A DNA stretch of 64,000 bases, taken from positions 28,052 through 92,051 of IMG/VR virus record IMGVR_UViG_3300017814_000114; one strand, written 5' to 3'. The DNA is from a virus. Lineage: Duplodnaviria > Caudoviricetes. Below the pieces are notes generated by a model. That model did no database searches, was not told the DNA's origin, and worked only from the letters and a program-made list of their open reading frames with translations. Shown one piece after another: positions 7,845 through 64,000 of the stretch (within the stretch, counting starts at the first letter, position 1; each line of letters begins with the position of its first letter). The position numbers and the translations under genes are program-made.

Positions 7845-7911
7845 TTCACAATAAACAGCATCAATATTACTTTTGTAATAGTTATCAACTATTTTCTAAT
7901 TTTTCTCCCCT

Positions 7912-8155
7912 TTTCCTTTGCTGTCTCAAATATTCTTTCGATATTTGCCCCAGCTAAACAGTAGTGAAATGTCTTTCACTTCGCAGAGCGCGGTTAATGC
8001 TCAACGATTTACGTCGGGCTTTTTTTATGCCCCACATACATATAAGCCATGCGGCTGTCTTCCGGGTATTTTTTTCTCTTCGGAGTGAGATTTACTACTG
8101 TTTAGCGACACGGAACGGCAGCCGTTTTTCTGTCGAAACGCTAAACAGTAGTAAT
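7912..8155 (+). ncRNA. c4/CI-like antisense RNA leader, prophage A
   Basis: gctaaacagtagt at 7953 and 8140, exact complement at 8094..8106; scaffold conserved with 46884..47124. Confidence 0.65.
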
Positions 8156-8416
8156 ATGAAAACGAACAATTCCATTGCAGTATTGCAGCCCAAAAGCAGC
8201 AATCTCGCACAGATCGTTTCCGGTACCGGGAACAAAATCTTCCAAAAAATCAATTCTATTCTACCCGACGAATGCAAAGTGCAGTCCCGTTCCGATGCCT
8301 GGTTCGTAGCAGCCACTTTCAGTTTGCTTATTACCATCCCTATTTATTACCTTCTACCTATAACCGCCCTATGTGTATACAAAGGCAATCAATTGAGCAG
8401 CCATGAAGAGCTTTAA
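8156..8416 (+). CDS. Small membrane protein after the antisense leader (Kil/Icd-like position)
   Basis: Start MKTN chosen by homology to 47125..47382 (shared P.E.K....SDA and CVYK). Confidence 0.6.
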   Translation: MKTNNSIAVLQPKSSNLAQIVSGTGNKIFQKINSILPDECKVQSRSDAWFVAATFSLLITIPIYYLLPITALCVYKGNQLSSHEEL

Positions 8417-8654
8417 TGTAGAAGGTGTATTGCTCAACGAAAAATCGTTGGCCATACTTAGAGACTTGCAAGAGGGTGATAACATCGGTATCGAGTTGTC
8501 TTGTCAGCTACTCGACACGACAATATACAATATTGCAAATCCCGACATGGGGATGTCGGAGCATGAAAGGCTTAGTACCGTTTCGGCTCTATTGGATTTC
8601 AAACGTCAGATAAACGAACTCAAAAAAGAGATGAACCATGAAACTACTGAATAA
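8403..8654 (+). CDS. Hypothetical phage protein
   Basis: Overlapping operon-like ORF. Confidence 0.6.
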   Translation: MKSFNVEGVLLNEKSLAILRDLQEGDNIGIELSCQLLDTTIYNIANPDMGMSEHERLSTVSALLDFKRQINELKKEMNHETTE

Positions 8655-8910
8655 TTTGGAAAATACGGAAGGGTTCGACAAGAAAGACCCGAAAAACACA
8701 ATATTTTGTTCCTATCTGCAAGGCAACCTTCCGGCAGACCTTAGCGATAAGAACAAGGTACTCAAATCGTCGCAAGACATCGTGGATGACTTGGCCGACA
8801 TGATAGAAGTCAGCATCAACGAAGTTGCCGATGTACTCGCCAACTCCGGGTATCTCGTTGTGACCGGAGACGACCATCTGCCACGATGGGCGATGCTACC
8901 GGGCAAATAA
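8638..8910 (+). CDS. Hypothetical phage protein
   Basis: Overlapping ORF followed by a hairpin at 8935..8964. Confidence 0.6.
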   Translation: MKLLNNLENTEGFDKKDPKNTIFCSYLQGNLPADLSDKNKVLKSSQDIVDDLADMIEVSINEVADVLANSGYLVVTGDDHLPRWAMLPGK

Positions 8911-8966: not shown

Positions 8967-8988
8967 TAAAAAACACTATATTTGTAAC

Positions 8989-9084
8989 ATGTTAAGTATA
9001 CCTATTATGTTTGCAAGCAACGGTTCAGCAGTAGTCATCTTTATTATTTTGGTACTATGGTACTTGCTTAGCAAGAAGAAATAA
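8989..9084 (+). CDS. 31-aa single-TM peptide (not in the ORF track)
   Basis: MLSIPIMFASNGSAVVIFIILVLWYLLSKKK; TATATTTG box at 8977..8984. Confidence 0.45.
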   Translation: MLSIPIMFASNGSAVVIFIILVLWYLLSKKK

Positions 9085-13513: not shown

Positions 13514-15334
13514 ATGACAGAGTTATTCATCAACAATAAAAGAATAGATTTAAATGATTCAATCAGTATCAAACTGGTGGACGAGAATAGTTATTTCACC
13601 GACTCGAGCAAGTACACGTATGACGTCGATGTACCGTTGAGAGGAAATGCGAATAACCTGAAAATACTCGGCAATCTGCAAAGGCTCGACGTCAACAAAG
13701 CCATTGTCAAAATGCCGGCAAGAATCATAGCGAACAACCAAAAAATAATTGACGGTACCGCAACGGTCACATCCGTCTCCGAGGATAAGATAAAAATACA
13801 GATTCTATCGGGTAACGCCGAACTCAACTTCTTGTCGAAATACGAAAAGCAGTACATCGATGAATTGAAATTGGGCTATGCGAAAAGAGCTGATGGGGTA
13901 ACCTTTTCAAACGATGAAGAAGTATGGAAATACGTACAGACGATGAGCGAAGATGACCGGTTCAAATTTCTGTACGGCAAATATGGAGATGCGAATTACG
14001 TATTCTTTCCAGCTTACAAAAATGATTTCGACGCCTGCTATAACAATTCGGGGTATCTCGATTGGGGTGAGACGGGCAATTACAGAGTGACGCTACATCG
14101 GTGTTATTGGCACGAAACGGCACAAAGATTCGAATGGGTAGACAGCATTAACGGAAGATTGGCCGCACAGCCTTATTTCTGTTATATCATCCGCCTTATT
14201 TTCGAAAAATTGGGCTATACTCTGGCGGAGAACCAGATAGAAAACACCCCGCTTAAAAACATTTTCATTGCCAATGCCATTAATATTTCAGACTTCGGGC
14301 AATGTCTCCCACATTGGACCATCAGCGAGTTCATGACACACGTCGAGCACTTTTTCGGGGTGATCTTCCGTATTGATGATGCCGACAAGAGAGTCCGGAT
14401 TATTGCACGGAATTCTTTCTATACCGCGGAGAATACGGAATACGTAGATAAGGTACTGAACGAATATACGGTCTCGAGCGATGCCGACGAAACGAAAGAT
14501 TTGTCCGACAGCAATCTTTCATATTCCTTCAGCAACAACGATCCTTATCTCAAAGTGGATGAAGACATCATCAGCAAAGCGCAGAAAAAAGAATTTGCAA
14601 ACGATGCGGAACTGTCCGCCTTCTGGAACTCGACGACAGACGAGAACAAATGTATCTATCTCTATTGTACAGAGGGTAAACAATACATTGATTACATGAT
14701 AAAAAACGGGAATAAGGAATCGCACAGCCTAAAAGAGATGAATCAATTTCGAAATCTGGTGAGAAACGAGAGTTCTGATAGTTCGGCCATCGAATTAAAG
14801 ATTGTTCCTGTTGCCATGATGTTGGCACATCAGATTTGGGACAATTACCATAGTGAAAGATTCGAGTGCCCGGTTATGGCACCGTCCGACTTCAGTTATG
14901 ACACGGCATCTATCAACATGCAAAATTTGATAGCGGGAAACGGTGGTACGGAGAAATCACAAGACATTATCGAGGTGGCAATGAATGACGGCATCAAACA
15001 GATGGTCACTCCCGAAGGTAGCAAATTTTATTATCCGTATCCTTTCGTCAGAACTTACGATGAACTCAAAGGAGAAAACAACAGGGGTTTTTCTTTTGAA
15101 CTGAATCAAATCAAAGGCAGGACAACCATGTACGACACCGTGTTCGGGCTATTGAATAAAATCAATACGAAATCGGAATATTGCATCAAATTCATATCCG
15201 ATAAAATGCCCAACGTCATGAAACGATTTATTATCAATAACAAAGCGTTCATTTGCGAAAAGATAGAATACAAAATCGATGCCAAGGGAATCGGCAAAGA
15301 AAAGACGGGGTACTTCTATGAAGCGGATTCATAA
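13514..15334 (+). CDS. Tail/baseplate protein
   Basis: Directly after the tape measure; N-terminal ENSYF...YTY...PL motif homologous to 52369..54405. Confidence 0.75.
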   Translation: MTELFINNKRIDLNDSISIKLVDENSYFTDSSKYTYDVDVPLRGNANNLKILGNLQRLDVNKAIVKMPARIIANNQKIIDGTATVTSVSEDKIKIQILSGNAELNFLSKYEKQYIDELKLGYAKRADGVTFSNDEEVWKYVQTMSEDDRFKFLYGKYGDANYVFFPAYKNDFDACYNNSGYLDWGETGNYRVTLHRCYWHETAQRFEWVDSINGRLAAQPYFCYIIRLIFEKLGYTLAENQIENTPLKNIFIANAINISDFGQCLPHWTISEFMTHVEHFFGVIFRIDDADKRVRIIARNSFYTAENTEYVDKVLNEYTVSSDADETKDLSDSNLSYSFSNNDPYLKVDEDIISKAQKKEFANDAELSAFWNSTTDENKCIYLYCTEGKQYIDYMIKNGNKESHSLKEMNQFRNLVRNESSDSSAIELKIVPVAMMLAHQIWDNYHSERFECPVMAPSDFSYDTASINMQNLIAGNGGTEKSQDIIEVAMNDGIKQMVTPEGSKFYYPYPFVRTYDELKGENNRGFSFELNQIKGRTTMYDTVFGLLNKINTKSEYCIKFISDKMPNVMKRFIINNKAFICEKIEYKIDAKGIGKEKTGYFYEADS

Positions 15335-16495
15335 GGCACCATCAAAATGCTTTGTCTCTTCGTGCACGGTCAGCGCATCCCCTTTTAAGTATTTGTTTGT
15401 AGTCGTAATGTCCGCATGACGTGCCTGATCTCTGGCTATGACGATGCCTTCGGCATTGGCCAAATCTCTGATGCCCGAATCTTTCAAGGAATAGAACTGA
15501 AGATTGGCAGGAAAATGAAGAGCCTTTCGTACTTTTATAAAAGCCTCTCGAAAGATACGCGAATCGGCTTTTTCCTCGCTCGGTCTGAAGTCGCGCCCGA
15601 ACAGATAACAAGTAGACGGTTTGGTCAGTGCATCAAGTTCTATCAACAGACGGCAAATCCCATCATTAAGCCCTACCATACCATCGCGACGGTTCTTCGA
15701 TATTGTTGAAGAGATAAATACCTTTTGCTCCTTCAGGTTGATATCCCCTATCCTGATATTGGATAATTCATCGGGACGAATAAAAGTATAGTATTCCATT
15801 TGACAGGCAAGCAAATAATTTTTGCTTTTCTTTTCAAGATAATTCCGGAGAGCCTGAAGCTGTTCATGAGTGAGGGCACTGCGGAACTTCTGGTTTTCCG
15901 GCAGAGTTTTTATGTTTTCACACGGATTTGTCAATAGGAATCTCTTTTCAAGCAACCACGAACAAAAGGCCGACAACCAGGTGCGATAATTATTCCGTGT
16001 TCGGGCCGAAGCATCACGGTCAAGTAAGATGTAATCGAGAAAATCGGAGATAAACGCCTGGTCAAACTGATACATATATATCACTGGTTGATAGCAACTG
16101 CCATTATATTCGCACAACATTTTGATGCGAGATTTGTAATCGATCGAAGTCTTATATTTCATCACGGAAGTAGCCAACAATTTATCGATGTATTTCATGT
16201 ATATATCAATGACTTCGGCAAGTTTATAATACTGCCTGTTCGACAAAACCTCAGCCCACGGATTCCAACCTTGGCGCAGACGGTTAGTTGCATTAACGAT
16301 GATTTCGGTCGCTCTTTTTCTTCTTTCCGATTTACTGGGAATCGAATCGAGCATATATCTCTTACGACGCATTTTACCTTCCGCCGGGTCCCAGCAGAAA
16401 AAATCAACATACCAATTTTTCTTTGTGTGAAGTTTCGGAAGTGTGTAAGTCACGATCTCGAATAACGAGCTTCTTTTCCTGTTTTTTGAAAACAT
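15329..16495 (-). CDS. int: Tyrosine integrase, prophage A
   Basis: FIRPDE, KNRR, YSLKDSG, ARH..I.TT.KY; start at MFSKNR set by alignment with integrase B. Confidence 0.92.
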   Translation of the reverse strand: MFSKNRKRSSLFEIVTYTLPKLHTKKNWYVDFFCWDPAEGKMRRKRYMLDSIPSKSERRKRATEIIVNATNRLRQGWNPWAEVLSNRQYYKLAEVIDIYMKYIDKLLATSVMKYKTSIDYKSRIKMLCEYNGSCYQPVIYMYQFDQAFISDFLDYILLDRDASARTRNNYRTWLSAFCSWLLEKRFLLTNPCENIKTLPENQKFRSALTHEQLQALRNYLEKKSKNYLLACQMEYYTFIRPDELSNIRIGDINLKEQKVFISSTISKNRRDGMVGLNDGICRLLIELDALTKPSTCYLFGRDFRPSEEKADSRIFREAFIKVRKALHFPANLQFYSLKDSGIRDLANAEGIVIARDQARHADITTTNKYLKGDALTVHEETKHFDGAL

Positions 16496-16551
16496 TTTTT
16501 TTACGTTTTTAAGAGTAAAAACGTATATGTTCAACAATCAAATTAAAATTT

Positions 16552-46869: not shown

Positions 46870-46883
46870 AAAAATCTCGCCTT

Positions 46884-47124
46884 TTCCTTTGCTATCTCAA
46901 ATATTCTTTCGATATTTGTCCCAGTCAAACGTCCACGAACGATTTCGTGTCGCAGAGCGCGGTTAATGCTCAACATACAACGTCGGGCTTTTTTTATGCC
47001 CGGCCGTAAAATATGGCGGCTGCTTATTCCTTTCATTTTTTTGTGCTCCGGCATGAATCTGTGGACGTTTGACGACGGGGAATGGCAGCCGTTTTTCTGT
47101 CTAAAATGTCAAACGCCCACAGTT
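46884..47124 (+). ncRNA. c4/CI-like antisense RNA leader, prophage B
   Basis: gtcaaacgtccac at 46924, complement gtggacgtttgac at 47061, gtcaaacgcccac at 47108. Confidence 0.65.
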
Positions 47125-47382
47125 ATGAAAACAAATCAAATGGGAATGCTCCTTCTCCCAGCTCCAGCCAAGAGAGCTAAAAGAATCAACTGGCACCTTG
47201 TCCGTGCCGAGATTATCAAATTTTACAATCGTTATGTGCCAGAAGAATTCAAGATAAAGACTAAAAGCGATGCCTTCAATTCTTTGTCCGTATACACACT
47301 TGCCATCAGTCTGATAATACCATACGTTATACCTGCTTTTGCTTGGTGCGTATATAAAGCAAAGAGAGGAGGTAACAAATGA
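47125..47382 (+). CDS. Small membrane protein, homolog of 8156..8416
   Basis: MKTN start 4 nt after the third box; SDA and CVYK shared. Confidence 0.6.
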   Translation: MKTNQMGMLLLPAPAKRAKRINWHLVRAEIIKFYNRYVPEEFKIKTKSDAFNSLSVYTLAISLIIPYVIPAFAWCVYKAKRGGNK

Positions 47383-47732
47383 GTATTCTTAATATATCCC
47401 ACGAAGGAAAAATCATCGAATATGTAGACCAACGCAAAGCCCCTAACCGGGCTTTCGAAGAAATGAAAAAATGCTTTGAAGAATGCGCGCAAAAATGTCT
47501 GACATTCGAAGAATCATACGAAAAGATATCAGACAACTTTAACACACTCAAGTCCTCTGCATTCAAATCCGGCACCGGAAACATGAAAATTGATAAATAC
47601 TTTCAGACATCATACTACAACGACATCAACTCCATCTATCTTAGATATAGTAATGAAGATGTGATATGCATATTCAATCAATATGGGAAACCAAAAGAAA
47701 AGGAGGATGACGAAGATGGAGAGAAAGATTAA
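47379..47732 (+). CDS. Hypothetical phage protein
   Basis: Coupled ORF. Confidence 0.55.
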   Translation: MSILNISHEGKIIEYVDQRKAPNRAFEEMKKCFEECAQKCLTFEESYEKISDNFNTLKSSAFKSGTGNMKIDKYFQTSYYNDINSIYLRYSNEDVICIFNQYGKPKEKEDDEDGEKD

Positions 47733-47952
47733 TATCAATCTGCCGGAGAAGTTACAAGAAACGATTTCCCGGTACCAAGAAGACGATGGAGAGCTCGCAC
47801 AATATTATATCAAACTATTGGACGAAGTCAGTGGATATTTTTTAAACGAAAACGTGCTATCCGTTGTTGATATAGACATGGCGAAACTGATATCCATGCT
47901 TCGCGACATCCGAGCGATAAGAATGGATTTATCCAGTTTTGTAGCGAAATAA
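47716..47952 (+). CDS. Hypothetical phage protein
   Basis: Helical ORF, loosely similar in size and position to 8403..8654; start uncertain. Confidence 0.5.
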   Translation: MERKININLPEKLQETISRYQEDDGELAQYYIKLLDEVSGYFLNENVLSVVDIDMAKLISMLRDIRAIRMDLSSFVAK

Positions 47953-48013: not shown

Positions 48014-48193
48014 ATGGATTTCTTATTAACGATATTTGGTGTAGCCCTTATTTGGATCGTAGCCAATTTGATATTAGCATTTTTCTTGGTCCCTTATCAA
48101 TGGCACGGAGATAAAGCCAAATGCGCTTATCTGTTATCTGTTATCATAACGCCATTCTTAGCAGTCCCCGTTATTGCTATGATGTGGAGTTAG
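48014..48193 (+). CDS. 59-aa two-TM protein (not in the ORF track)
   Basis: MDFLLTIFGVALIWIVANLILAFFLVPYQWHGDKAKCAYLLSVIITPFLAVPVIAMMWS; TATCTTAG box at 47988. Confidence 0.55.
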   Translation: MDFLLTIFGVALIWIVANLILAFFLVPYQWHGDKAKCAYLLSVIITPFLAVPVIAMMWS

Positions 48194-61331: not shown

Positions 61332-61805
61332 ATGAAAATGTTATTTATTAGTTATTTGTTATCGGGAGATAATGCAAAAATAGCAATGTGGTTGCTTGTT
61401 GCTGCAGCCTTAGCTTTTCCCCCAAATATTGCAAGTTTTATCGACCTTGTTACTGGCATAAAAGCGAGTAAGAGGCTTGGCAATTTCAAGACAACCTCAT
61501 TCGGGTTGAGACAAACGATTAGTAAAGATAGAGACTACATGACTTACTTCTTCCTCATGTTCCTTATCGATTGCTGTCTCTCGTTCTTCATTGACTTTCC
61601 AGTCATGTGTATTCTTTGTGCCATTGCGGAAACGGTTATAGAGGTTATATCTATCAGGGAAAACATGCACAAAGGACGTACAGAAACACATGATCCGATT
61701 GCGTTGATGCAAAGCATTGCCACTGCTTACGGTCAAGACAAAGCCGATAAGATTTTCAATATCATCAAACAACAGGAGGAAAAAAACAATGAGAATAACG
61801 GTTGA
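61332..61805 (+). CDS. Holin
   Basis: DLVTGI.AS......TS.GLR.T..K, three TM segments, E..SI.EN; overlaps the endolysin start. Confidence 0.82.
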   Translation: MKMLFISYLLSGDNAKIAMWLLVAAALAFPPNIASFIDLVTGIKASKRLGNFKTTSFGLRQTISKDRDYMTYFFLMFLIDCCLSFFIDFPVMCILCAIAETVIEVISIRENMHKGRTETHDPIALMQSIATAYGQDKADKIFNIIKQQEEKNNENNG

Positions 61806-62199
61806 CAGGCTTTGGAAGAAAGAGACGTATACCATCGGTAAAATGGCCATCGATGGAAAATACTTCTGCAACACACTTGAAGATAAAGAGAGAGACCTCA
61901 CCAAAGAATCCAAAGTTTTCGGCAGGACGGCCATTCCTGCCAGAACTTACCGGATAACGATGACTTACTCGCCGAAGTTCAAGCGAGTGATGCCACTCGT
62001 TAACGGCGTTCCGCAGTTCGAAGCGATCCGCATTCATCCGGGTAACAAGGCTGAAGATACGGAAGGTTGTATCTTGGTTGGTGAGAATACCATAATAGGG
62101 GGACTGACAAATTCACGTAAGTGGTCTGATGAACTGAACAAACGCATTCAGGATGCCTTAGCTAGTAAAGAAGATGTTTTGATAACCATTAAAGATTGA
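61789..62199 (+). CDS. Endolysin, DUF5675 family
   Basis: Near-identical to 54..467; ATG at 61789 by alignment. Confidence 0.85.
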   Translation: MRITVDRLWKKETYTIGKMAIDGKYFCNTLEDKERDLTKESKVFGRTAIPARTYRITMTYSPKFKRVMPLVNGVPQFEAIRIHPGNKAEDTEGCILVGENTIIGGLTNSRKWSDELNKRIQDALASKEDVLITIKD

Positions 62200-62203
62200 T
62201 GAT

Positions 62204-62623
62204 ATGAAACGAAAACAGACGTATATGTACACTATCATCCTATTTATGATATTGCTGACTTCATGCCGATCGGTCAAGTATGTGCCGGTTGAAAGTGTAC
62301 GGACAGAAACGAAGTATATCGATAAGCTGGTGCAAAAGCACGATTCGATCTATTTGCACGATTCGATTTCTTCGTATATCAAAGGGGACACGGTATTTCT
62401 AAATAAATACCGGACGAAGTACGTGAACAAGTACATCTTTGGCACAGACAGTATCTATTTTAATAAGACCGATTCCGTTCGTATCCCTTATCTTGTAGAG
62501 AAGCAACTCACCAAGTGGCAAAAGGTAGAAATGAATACCGGCAGAATAACGATTATTGCATTGATTGTGTTGGCTCTTTCATCAGGAATTTATATATTTG
62601 TGAATTATAAAGTGAGAAAGTAA
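62204..62623 (+). CDS. Spanin-like lipoprotein
   Basis: Near-identical to 681..1100. Confidence 0.75.
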   Translation: MKRKQTYMYTIILFMILLTSCRSVKYVPVESVRTETKYIDKLVQKHDSIYLHDSISSYIKGDTVFLNKYRTKYVNKYIFGTDSIYFNKTDSVRIPYLVEKQLTKWQKVEMNTGRITIIALIVLALSSGIYIFVNYKVRK

Positions 62624-62655
62624 ACCGAGAGGTTGAAGAGATAATATCAGATTGA

Positions 62656-62695
62656 GAAGAGGCGTGCGATAAACCGTACGTCTCTTCTATCTTAT
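62656..62695 (+). terminator. Terminator after the lysis genes
   Basis: gaagaggcgtgcg/cgtacgtctcttc stem. Confidence 0.7.
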
Positions 62696-62830: not shown

Positions 62831-64000
62831 TTATAAATTTCCTTTGAAATGTTTTGTTTCATCGTGTACCGTCAACGCATCCCCTTTTAAATATTTATTC
62901 GTCGTCGTAATGTCCGCATGTCGTGCCTGGTCTCGAGCCACGACGATGCCTTCTGCATTTGCCAGATCTCTAATACCAGAATCCTTTAAAGAGTAAAATT
63001 GATAATAAGCCGGCCATTTTAAAGTCTTCCTAAGATTCACAAAACTATCTCGAAATATGCGAGCACTCGCTTGGTCCTGAGATGGTATAAATTTCTCGCC
63101 AAATAGATAATCACTGTTAGGATGGGAAAAGACATCAAGTTCGATCATAAGCCTAATTAATTCATCATTGATACCCACCATGCCATCCCGCCTATTTTTA
63201 GAAAAAGCAGACGATATGAATATTTTTTGTTCCTTGATTCGTATATCACCCACTTTTATATATGTCAGTTCCGTCGGTCGAATAAAAGTATAATATTCCA
63301 TCATGCATGCTAAAAGAAAAGGTTTATTCGTCCTTCCAAGATGTTCACGAAGTAGGTGAAGATCATCTGCAGTCAATGCACTACGAAACTTTTGCTCCTC
63401 GGGTAAACATCTTATTTTAGATACCGGATTTTCTAATAAATATTTTTTTTCGACAAGCCAGGAACATAGAGCCGATAACCAAGTACGATAATTGTTTCTT
63501 GTACGTGCTGACGAATCCCGGTCTAACAAAATATAATCAAGGAAATCAGAAATAAAAGCTAAATCAAACTGATAGATATATACGATCTTACTATAACGTT
63601 GTCCGTTATAGGCTATTAGTGTACTCAGACGCGACAGATAATCATATACGGTTTTTTGTTTCATCGCCCCCGTTTTCTCCATCTTAGAGATATACAGTTG
63701 GAATTGATTAAGTACATTTTCAAAAGATGCATATTGCCGTTCATTCCCTGCTTCAGCCCATGGATTCCATCCGGATCTTAGTTTACCTGCTAATGATGCT
63801 ATTAGTTCCATCGCTCTCTTTTTCCTATCCGATGGTCTATCAATTCCATCTAGCATGTACTTTTTACGACGTAGACTATCGGTAATGGGGTCGAAACAAT
63901 AAAAATCAACATACCAATTCTTTCCGACAGAATGAAGCTTTGGGAGTGTGTAAGAAACAACTTCATAAAAAGAGGATCCTGATCTGTGTCGAGACAACAT
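62831..64000 (-). CDS. int: Tyrosine integrase, prophage B
   Basis: Paralog of integrase A with a near-identical catalytic C-terminus; ATG at the last bases of the window. Confidence 0.92.
   Translation of the reverse strand: MLSRHRSGSSFYEVVSYTLPKLHSVGKNWYVDFYCFDPITDSLRRKKYMLDGIDRPSDRKKRAMELIASLAGKLRSGWNPWAEAGNERQYASFENVLNQFQLYISKMEKTGAMKQKTVYDYLSRLSTLIAYNGQRYSKIVYIYQFDLAFISDFLDYILLDRDSSARTRNNYRTWLSALCSWLVEKKYLLENPVSKIRCLPEEQKFRSALTADDLHLLREHLGRTNKPFLLACMMEYYTFIRPTELTYIKVGDIRIKEQKIFISSAFSKNRRDGMVGINDELIRLMIELDVFSHPNSDYLFGEKFIPSQDQASARIFRDSFVNLRKTLKWPAYYQFYSLKDSGIRDLANAEGIVVARDQARHADITTTNKYLKGDALTVHDETKHFKGNL

Follow-up and report, generated by a model that had tools for sequence, protein, structure and literature searches.

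What does a scaffold that recurs almost unchanged ahead of two small operons in one provirus record specify, and what is to be made of the three short segments that differ between its copies? The stretch that raises this question, called the window throughout, is 64,000 nucleotides (nt) of DNA from a virus of the Caudoviricetes and forms the right-hand 64 kb of the 92-kb IMG/VR provirus record IMGVR_UViG_3300017814_000114. Sequence comparison places the shared scaffold at 7912-8160 (copy A) and 46883-47127 (copy B), with identity that locally reaches 100%; three short boxes within it differ between the copies and match within each copy. An earlier note on this DNA had described boxes that change together and had placed all six of them exactly: in copy A, GCTAAACAGTAGT at 7953 and again at 8140, with its reverse complement at 8094; in copy B, GTCAAACGTCCAC at 46924, its reverse complement at 47061 and GTCAAACGCCCAC, with one C-A mismatch, at 47108. 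The answer developed here is that the scaffold is an operon leader belonging to a real, conserved and previously undescribed family of structured RNAs from temperate phages of the Bacteroidales, and that a three-way covarying recognition code is part of that family. The parts of the two copies are listed below, T1 and T2 being terminator-like hairpins and D1 to D3 the downstream open reading frames (ORFs), with product lengths in amino acids (aa).

7917 to 7947, plus strand: promoter of copy A, by sequence, with the -33 TTTG at 7917-7920, a 19-nt spacer and the -7 box gATATTTG at 7940-7947
7953 to 7965, plus strand: box 1 of copy A, GCTAAACAGTAGT, the predicted RNA 5' end
7963 to 7980, plus strand: hairpin 1 of copy A, AGTGAAA-TGTC-TTTCACT, its 5' arm overlapping the 3' end of box 1
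7981 to 8005, plus strand: invariant core of copy A, holding the core hairpin GAGCG-CGGUUAA-UGCUC at 7986-8002
7999 to 8032, plus strand: T1 of copy A, a GCUC...GGGC hairpin with U7 at 8020-8026, then the invariant AUGCCC
8051 to 8129, plus strand: T2 of copy A, with outer stem GCGGCUG..UUCCG / CGGAA..CAGCCG and U5 at 8125-8129
8076 to 8085, plus strand: UUCG hairpin of copy A, which with box 2 makes up the T2 interior enclosed by the outer stem
8094 to 8106, plus strand: box 2 of copy A, ACTACTGTTTAGC, complementary to boxes 1 and 3
8140 to 8154, plus strand: box 3 of copy A, GCTAAACAGTAGTaa, stopping just before the ATG at 8156
8156 to 8910, plus strand: operon of copy A, with D1 at 8156-8416, D2 (83 aa) at 8403-8654 and D3 (90 aa) at 8638-8910, stops and starts overlapping
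46888 to 46918, plus strand: promoter of copy B, with the -33 TTTG at 46888-46891 and the -7 box gATATTTG at 46911-46918
46924 to 46936, plus strand: box 1 of copy B, GTCAAACGTCCAC
46934 to 46949, plus strand: hairpin 1 of copy B, CACGAA-CGAT-TTCGTG
46950 to 46974, plus strand: invariant core of copy B
46968 to 46971 (GCUC), 46985 to 46988 (GGGC), 46989 to 46995 (U7) and 46996 to 47001 (AUGCCC), plus strand: T1 of copy B
47016 to 47096, plus strand: T2 of copy B with its U5 (47092-47096), enclosing a UCCG hairpin and box 2
47061 to 47073, plus strand: box 2 of copy B, GTGGACGTTTGAC
47108 to 47122, plus strand: box 3 of copy B, GTCAAACGCCCACag, 4 nt before the ATG at 47125, with one C-A mismatch to box 2
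47125 to 47952, plus strand: operon of copy B, with D1 at 47125-47382, D2 (117 aa) at 47379-47732 and D3 (89 aa) at 47683-47952

The boxes carry the argument. Automatic detection that was blind to the earlier positions recovered complementarity of box 2 to both box 1 and box 3 in 81 unique instances, and more than 120 homologous loci, from IMG/VR contigs and Bacteroidales genomes, follow the same three-box rule. Covariation in homologues, whose absence the earlier note had named as grounds for abandoning its proposal, is seen in more than 40 members, those found by covariance model included. Cognate duplexes average -21.9 (box 1:box 2) and -26.1 kcal/mol (box 3:box 2), against -10.6 and -11.2 kcal/mol for non-cognate ones; the cognate partner ranks first for 44 of 51 box 1 sequences and 48 of 51 box 3 sequences, and 75% of the cognate energy is reached by 5.2% of non-cognate box 3:box 2 pairs. 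Wobbles (G-U or U-G) number 67 across the family's box pairings, 50 of them in box 1:box 2 and 17 in box 3:box 2, against two A-C mismatches, an excess which argues that selection acts on pairing of plus-strand RNA, not on DNA repeats or an antisense transcript.

The code had been put at 13 nt; the matched boxes stand and the length does not, since box 2 pairs on average over 15.9 base pairs (bp) with box 1 and over 16.8 bp with box 3. A semi-conserved stretch of 6-7 nt (GCUAAAC or GUCAAAC) opens the box and leaves a variable code of about 6-10 nt. The 109 instances of the 16-mer before the ATG comprise 38 distinct sequences, or 33 groups at ≤2 mismatches. Box 3 ends 0-4 nt before the first-ORF ATG in nearly all members, and the claim that in the window it lies just ahead of homologous small genes is borne out, the repeats ending 3 nt (A) and 4 nt (B) before the ATGs of D1 ORFs that form one BLAST family. 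Cognate energies for the window copies are -23.6, -24.5, -24.7 and -22.5 kcal/mol, cross energies between A and B run from -5.8 to -11.9 kcal/mol, and the co-resident copies are thus predicted not to cross-pair. This agrees with the orthogonal half of the orthogonal RNA-based immunity proposed in the earlier note; the immunity half stays conjectural, the controlled genes being unknown small proteins. No box sequence recurs elsewhere in the 92-kb record when up to 2 mismatches are allowed, and the window holds precisely two occurrences of the 25-nt core, where shuffles predict 0.00.

How widely the element is spread was gauged with an 18-nt piece of the core as an exact query, which retrieved at least 107 IMG/VR contigs and 17 genome contigs. 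Fifteen of the 17 are Bacteroidales (Bacteroides, Phocaeicola, Duncaniella, Muribaculaceae, Porphyromonadaceae and Sangeribacter); the remaining pair match the core by chance and lack the rest of the element. Bacteroides sp. OM05-12 carries two copies (L129 and L133), and locus L026 comes from a Phocaeicola vulgatus isolate. A covariance model of the 5' domain, built from homologues as had been proposed, was run on 151 genomes sampled from the family to which one Bacteroides host belongs; it detects the element in 6 of them and also recovers divergent copies that lack the exact core; five divergent copies found by the model alone obey the three-box rule. The INPHARED phage collection returned a single match (71%, unannotated), literature searches found no prior description of the leader, and papers on BV01 describe a protein repressor and no RNA of this kind.

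The anatomy was read from an alignment (A2) of 47 distinct leaders together with an entropy profile. A Bacteroidetes promoter, TTTG-N19/20-nAnnTTTG, is present in 61 of 61 homologous loci, and box 1, correctly placed just after the promoter in the earlier note, starts 4 nt past the -7 box in 46 of the 61, so that it is the predicted 5' end of the RNA. A TTTG/TTTG-type motif is known for Bacteroides promoters (Bayley 2000, as cited in PMC2864571). The stem of hairpin 1, which overlaps the 3' end of box 1, carries compensatory changes both between the copies and among the homologues. The core behind it is identical in A, B and more than 100 loci; its hairpin is 98.9% paired, and divergent copies show compensatory changes (GGGCG/UGCCC, GAGUU/AGCUC, GAGUA/UGCUC, GAGCCU/AGGCUC, GGGCCU/AGGCUC) with the loop GGUU kept.

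T1 takes the form GCUC-N10-15-GGGC, a stem of 5-8 bp followed by an invariant U7. The motif acgtcgggcttttttt, earlier listed as part of the scaffold, is present, and it is actually the 3' arm and U-tract of T1. T1 interiors fold better than shuffles in 38 of 39 sequences (p = 6e-8), the hairpin is 96.8% paired, and its fifth pair (A-U in 28 sequences, G-C in 18, G-U in 2) was reached by 0 of 500 shuffles; T1 and the core hairpin are alternatives, because both use the same GCUC. T2 has an outer stem of 11-12 bp with compensatory changes in 5 of 11 pairs, then a run rich in U (66 of 71 loci have 5-7 T among the following 8 nt), and its structured interior of about 45 nt holds an A/U-rich strand, a covarying UNCG-type tetraloop hairpin and box 2. 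RNAalifold applied to the 5' domain returned invariant helices only, T1 needing a separate test, and minimum free energy (MFE) z-scores for the leader are -4.5 and -4.0. The leader does not code for protein: measured from the core ATG, the ORF start is distributed about evenly over the three phases (22/16/19), 20 of the 22 in-frame cases contain stops, and the leader holds no conserved ORF of the kind expected of protein-coding sequence.

How might these parts work together? Switch folding was predicted by partition function for 40 distinct members. For the short RNA, which runs from the transcription start site (TSS) to T1, the leading 8 nt of box 1 are predicted to be 76% unpaired. When the RNA extends from the TSS to T2, 99% pairing is predicted for box 2, with box 1 as its partner, and the MFE structure is a long helix that reaches past the boxes and crosses the T2 stem, so that this helix and T2 exclude one another. 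In the full-length RNA, the median probability of box 2:box 3 pairing is 0.86, against 0.05 for box 1:box 2 (box 3 of copy A is paired with box 2 at 0.98), and the region from box 3 to the AUG is 16% unpaired at the median; the mRNA is therefore predicted to be masked by default. Box 1 appears as a weaker, wobble-rich competitor for box 2, and box 3:box 2 as the cleaner duplex.

A mechanism can be proposed in which a non-coding leader of about 205 nt, with its own host-type promoter, heads a small operon that would be translationally coupled, leader and operon forming a portable module of temperate Bacteroidales phages and a self-addressed RNA lock. Box 2, displayed inside the stable T2, would pair with box 3 and bury the start codon of the first ORF, so that the default would be OFF; if box 1 captured box 2 instead, the start codon would be freed and T2 broken. 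Leaky termination at T1 and T2 would release RNAs of about 75 nt (with an exposed box 1 seed) and about 178 nt, at least one of which would also act in trans on transcripts with the same code. Control would then be specific to the code of each phage, and the co-resident phages A and B would run without cross-talk. By analogy with the systems considered next, we put the chances of such a three-box lock, with at least one leader RNA acting also in trans, at about even; its output might be immunity, exclusion or timing.

The comparison with known antisense systems is one of function and layout. Searched with Rfam at gathering thresholds, the whole window matches no family; the C4-clan and IsrK models give no hit at E ≤ 10 over 7850-8250 and none at E ≤ 1 at the copy B locus (L009), and the leader does not reach the gathering score of C4 (RF01695), c4-2 (RF02944), c4-a1b1 or IsrK. 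The search against C4 families proposed in the earlier note thus places the leader outside the C4 clan, as an analogue; "c4/CI-like" is apt as a works-like analogy. Only Proteobacteria and their phages are listed as carriers of the known c4 and c4-a1b1 families (PMC2864571). What the leader does share with the c4/CI type is one antisense box with two flanking complementary boxes in a single transcription unit, and a downstream box that covers the point where translation of a small first ORF, itself coupled to distal genes, begins; the upstream box, the complement in a stable hairpin and the copy over a translation start, all served by one promoter, bear out the comparison with P1/P7 c4 and P4 CI made in the earlier note.

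The closest counterpart in function and layout is the IsrK/STnc1160/orf45-anrP locus of the Salmonella prophage Gifsy-1. There one promoter yields a short terminated IsrK, a seqA homologue, and a translationally silent read-through mRNA in which an internal segment masks the first small ORF; short IsrK, whose sequence complements that segment, turns on the read-through mRNA in trans, processed STnc1160 is complementary to IsrK, and the small orf45 is coupled to the anti-repressor gene anrP (PMC4825925). Box 1 with T1 would correspond to IsrK, box 2 with T2 to STnc1160, and box 3 with D1, including the D1-D2 overlap, to orf45. By the standards of an IsrK-type element, T1 and its U7 are conserved and covarying but weak, and masking is predicted (median 0.86). 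The leader differs from Gifsy-1 in lacking sequence or covariance-model similarity, in its fold, in its Bacteroidota host, in having an anti-repressor downstream in a single locus (L147) and in adjoining structural genes, and its trans action and expression are predictions from sequence.

For coliphage P4, PMC4825925 sets out seqA, the CI RNA (seqB) and seqC in the leader of the controlled operon, with premature termination involved and CI cut out of the leader by processing. As in P4, a stable RNA carries the antisense box, and a copy of the complement stands on either side of it in the leader of the operon under control, box 2 with T2 answering to CI or c4 and box 3 with D1 to seqC or a2b2 together with icd or kil. 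The leader departs from P4 in showing no evident tRNA-like features or processing sites, and P4 controls replication genes where uncharacterized small proteins stand here. The immI region of P1/P7 runs a1b1, c4 RNA, a2b2, icd, ant (PMC8198154; RF01695; PMC2864571). As in P1, antisense RNA and target derive from one transcript, with the target box over the start of a small first ORF and coupled genes downstream; unlike P1, the leader has a single box of about 15-17 nt in place of two short a'/b' segments, and ant is absent from the window copies. In P1 and P7, differences in specificity between the related phages reportedly underlie heteroimmunity, as Citron and Schuster are said to have found in 1990.

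Two further comparisons bear on the leader. It resembles hok/sok-type fold-back mRNAs, and a hicAB cassette of the same provirus, in that a 5' box close to the initial start codon has its exact complement well downstream, and D1, like many type I toxins, is a small membrane protein. The leader differs from fold-back toxin mRNAs in that its anti-box lies upstream of the ORF and a third box is present; hicAB has two boxes only and neither the invariant core nor T1. No antisense promoter was found, none having been looked for. In lambda PR'-tR', according to PMC7547250, a constitutive promoter before the late genes makes a short terminated RNA (6S RNA, StxS) in the lysogen; unlike the leader, those RNAs need Q protein and lack matched boxes over a start codon.

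Is the code, then, read within one molecule or between molecules? Several patterns favour a between-molecule specificity function: the concerted replacement of boxes, the stacking of leaders in tandem, and the presence of a trans component in experimentally studied systems of the same layout (PMC4825925, PMC8198154). The leaders labelled WinB and L146 have promoters about 95% identical, a T2 3' arm and spacer identical at 48 of 48 positions and a first 80 nt of the ORF 99% identical, and the variable parts of all three boxes are replaced between them, box 3 as a patch of about 10 nt between these identical or 99% identical flanks. Two contigs of one genome (G006), C38 (locus L134) and C36 (L139), are identical over 118 nt from the D1 ATG and differ in leader code; these loci are contig ends of one metagenome-assembled genome and look like two strain variants differing mainly in the boxes. 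Tandem leaders occur in three lineages (L023:3600-4120(-), L014:2200-2780(-), L073:11600-12110(-)): the first leader is complete, with promoter, T1, T2 and intact boxes, and is followed only by a 5' fragment of a D1-like ORF, and the second, also complete, has a different code, a variant core and then a full ORF. Whole leader-operon units are repeated 1.6 kb apart in L015 and 3.2 kb apart in L019/L141.

Bacteroidota are known to lack Hfq. Tentatively, and as a possibility we regard as falling short of probable, the small leader RNAs would act in trans and gut Bacteroidales temperate phages would carry a natural library of at least 33 orthogonal, programmable, Hfq-free locks, in which the code would set recognition between co-infecting or co-resident phages, as RNA-based heteroimmunity or cross-activation, and leader stacking (L023, L014, L073) would add specificities.

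The genes under the leader give few clues. D1 products, 65-92 aa long, are very variable, with four or more unrelated families among them, and the majority carry a hydrophobic segment at the C-terminus, the window D1 being a small protein with a C-terminal transmembrane (TM) segment. Most D1 proteins end in K-G-G, encoding a GGAGG-like sequence 5-8 nt before the next ATG (47365-47381 in the window), which suggests, from sequence, Shine-Dalgarno-type translational coupling in these operons, in phages of a phylum where such sites are in general seldom used; in copy B, D1 and D2 overlap by ATGA, and GGAGG lies 7 nt upstream of the D2 ATG. Nearly all of the unrelated D1 families share the K-G-G end, and D1 stops overlap the next starts. 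Pfam and PHROG searches of D1-D3 assigned no family. One downstream family (f1, 33 loci; for example L114:8787-9131) gives a confident alpha/beta model, with a predicted local distance difference test score (pLDDT) of 88, and a structure search with that model found no relative above noise. Another (f2, 25 loci, including D3 at 8638-8910 of the window) is modelled at pLDDT 85, and every one of its top structural hits is a winged-helix DNA-binding domain (Zur/PerR/RFX, Z up to 7.0); by its model, f2 is only generically winged-helix-like.

An anti-repressor does stand behind one leader. In L147, the most divergent member, the ORF that immediately follows the leader encodes a protein with an AntA/AntB anti-repressor domain (PF08346, E = 3.4e-12, above the Pfam cut-off), and this is the single divergent locus where an AntA domain takes that place. 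About 730 nt upstream of that leader, L147:2314-2393(-) matches c4-2 (RF02944) below threshold, at 27.9 bits against a gathering score of 41, between two Gp49-like/helix-turn-helix gene pairs of toxin-antitoxin type on the other strand. Being a distinct hairpin that stays below threshold and lies among such genes, the match was rejected as the leader; it may be fortuitous, or a Bacteroidales prophage may here carry a genuine RNA of the c4 clan.

The surroundings place the element in the late, structural region directly after a cargo island, not in the early immunity region. Upstream there is always cargo: in the window a pentapeptide-repeat protein, an FRG protein and a variable ORF, elsewhere a methyltransferase or a Bor-like lipoprotein. 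Downstream, the module precedes the tape-measure gene in the window and at many loci, and a portal gene at others, always on the same strand as both the island and the portal/tail genes. At 8977-9084 (A) and 48014-48193 (B) another promoter-like -7 box is accompanied by a very small hydrophobic ORF, of 31 aa in copy A and 59 aa in copy B; a tiny TM ORF between leader operon and tape-measure gene recalls the membrane-protein morons of other siphophages. The leader is a portable module at late-operon junctions and not a tail gene, since its neighbours vary and a promoter-like box and tiny ORF intervene. D2 and D3 were rejected as tail chaperones on similar grounds, the same families preceding the portal gene elsewhere and the same box and tiny TM ORF standing between. 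The window itself contains pieces of at least three related prophages in series (compare 1-1134 with 61736-62657, and 15329-16537 with 62831-64000), with minus-strand integrase genes at 15329-16537 and 62831-64000, each after the end of the preceding element; element A ends with a 606-aa ORF abutting the next integrase and so appears truncated or interrupted.

A number of observations weigh against a trans-capable lock. T1 is weak, at about -5 kcal/mol, and a consensus promoter/terminator scanner called neither T1 nor T2, nor the Bacteroidetes promoter; it is built for sigma-70 promoters and tight hairpins, and its misses are uninformative. The small RNAs and their 5' and 3' ends are known here as sequence predictions, and box 2 is predicted to be 1% unpaired in the TSS-to-T2 RNA, so that a trans repressor of the c4 kind would have to be processed from it. 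None of the controlled genes is recognizable as an immunity gene, and the module adjoins tape-measure or portal genes. Over all family pairs, box divergence is not significantly faster than that of the other variable leader segments (among close pairs, about 10 of 16 independent ones go in the expected direction of faster box divergence), and that all five co-resident pairs differ in code is the chance expectation with about 40 codes. Finally, the hicAB cassette at G000:16121-16880 (locus L010), about 11 kb before the window start in the same provirus record, has a 13-nt 5' box, GTCAAACGATAAC, 6 nt before the hicA ATG, a perfect complement at the hicB stop codon and, at its end, a T2-type hairpin 79% identical to that of the leader; judging from its sequence, it reuses the box/anti-box and T2 module as a plain cis fold-back. 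A serious rival is a leader switch acting purely in cis, in which box 2 sequesters the start codon, box 1 is an intramolecular anti-sequestor or antiterminator, and no trans RNA takes part; the outcome would be settled co-transcriptionally, by pausing, a core-bound protein or 5' processing, and code differences would be compensated drift. Every pairing is possible within one transcript, the helix joining box 1 to box 2 runs on past the boxes themselves (cognate -19.8 against -14.4 kcal/mol) and dominates the TSS-to-T2 MFE, hicAB offers a cis precedent in the same provirus, and box divergence shows no significant family-wide excess. Purifying selection on a cis helix would not, however, be expected to yield concerted replacement of three boxes between flanks 95-100% identical; intact first leaders are kept before mere ORF fragments in tandem arrays, T1 would release a small RNA with an exposed seed, and the experimentally studied systems of this layout all have a trans component. 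We regard a purely cis switch as possible, short of probable.

Less probable, and on balance unlikely, is a late-operon entry or insulator, in which a constitutive promoter and tandem terminators stop cargo-gene and leader transcripts from entering the structural genes in the lysogen, read-through needs a phage antiterminator or core-binding factor in the manner of lambda PR'-tR' 6S RNA, StxS or a put-like RNA, and the boxes only shape the fold. The constant place of the module after cargo and before portal or tail genes on the same strand, its two terminator-like hairpins in series and the precedent in PMC7547250 all suit such a role, and that the core and GGGC-U7-AUGCCC vary so extraordinarily little points to a conserved partner, either a protein or RNA polymerase. 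It leaves unexplained a box 3 that lies exactly on the start codon and covaries with box 2 in every member; the tape-measure gene, moreover, seems to have its own promoter-like box downstream of the leader, and an antiterminator gene was not identified. That there is no RNA element at all, and the boxes are protein-binding or recombination sites in DNA or the leader a coding N-terminal extension of D1, we consider very improbable. In both window copies the core ATG is in frame with D1 and stop-free, and boxes 1 and 3 are direct repeats with box 2 inverted; the coding version was rejected on the unconserved frame (phases 22/16/19) and the stops in 20 of 22 in-frame cases, and the DNA-repeat version on the wobble asymmetry of 67:2, which marks plus-strand RNA pairing as the thing selected, the UNCG tetraloops and compensatory stems also pointing to RNA.

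The leader would extend to new hosts a kind of regulation, RNA-based phage immunity and self-targeting leaders, that is known almost only from proteobacterial phages (P1/P7, P4, Gifsy-1). A comparable system is undescribed for the Bacteroidales, the dominant gut order, in which post-transcriptional regulation is poorly understood. The leader is common and sharply defined enough to be a ready candidate for Rfam, and some 40 natural box sets, predicted to be orthogonal, make the question of cis or trans action directly testable. If the action in trans is true, such boxes would offer orthogonal riboregulators for engineering Bacteroides, and the code would explain how related prophages coexist in one cell.

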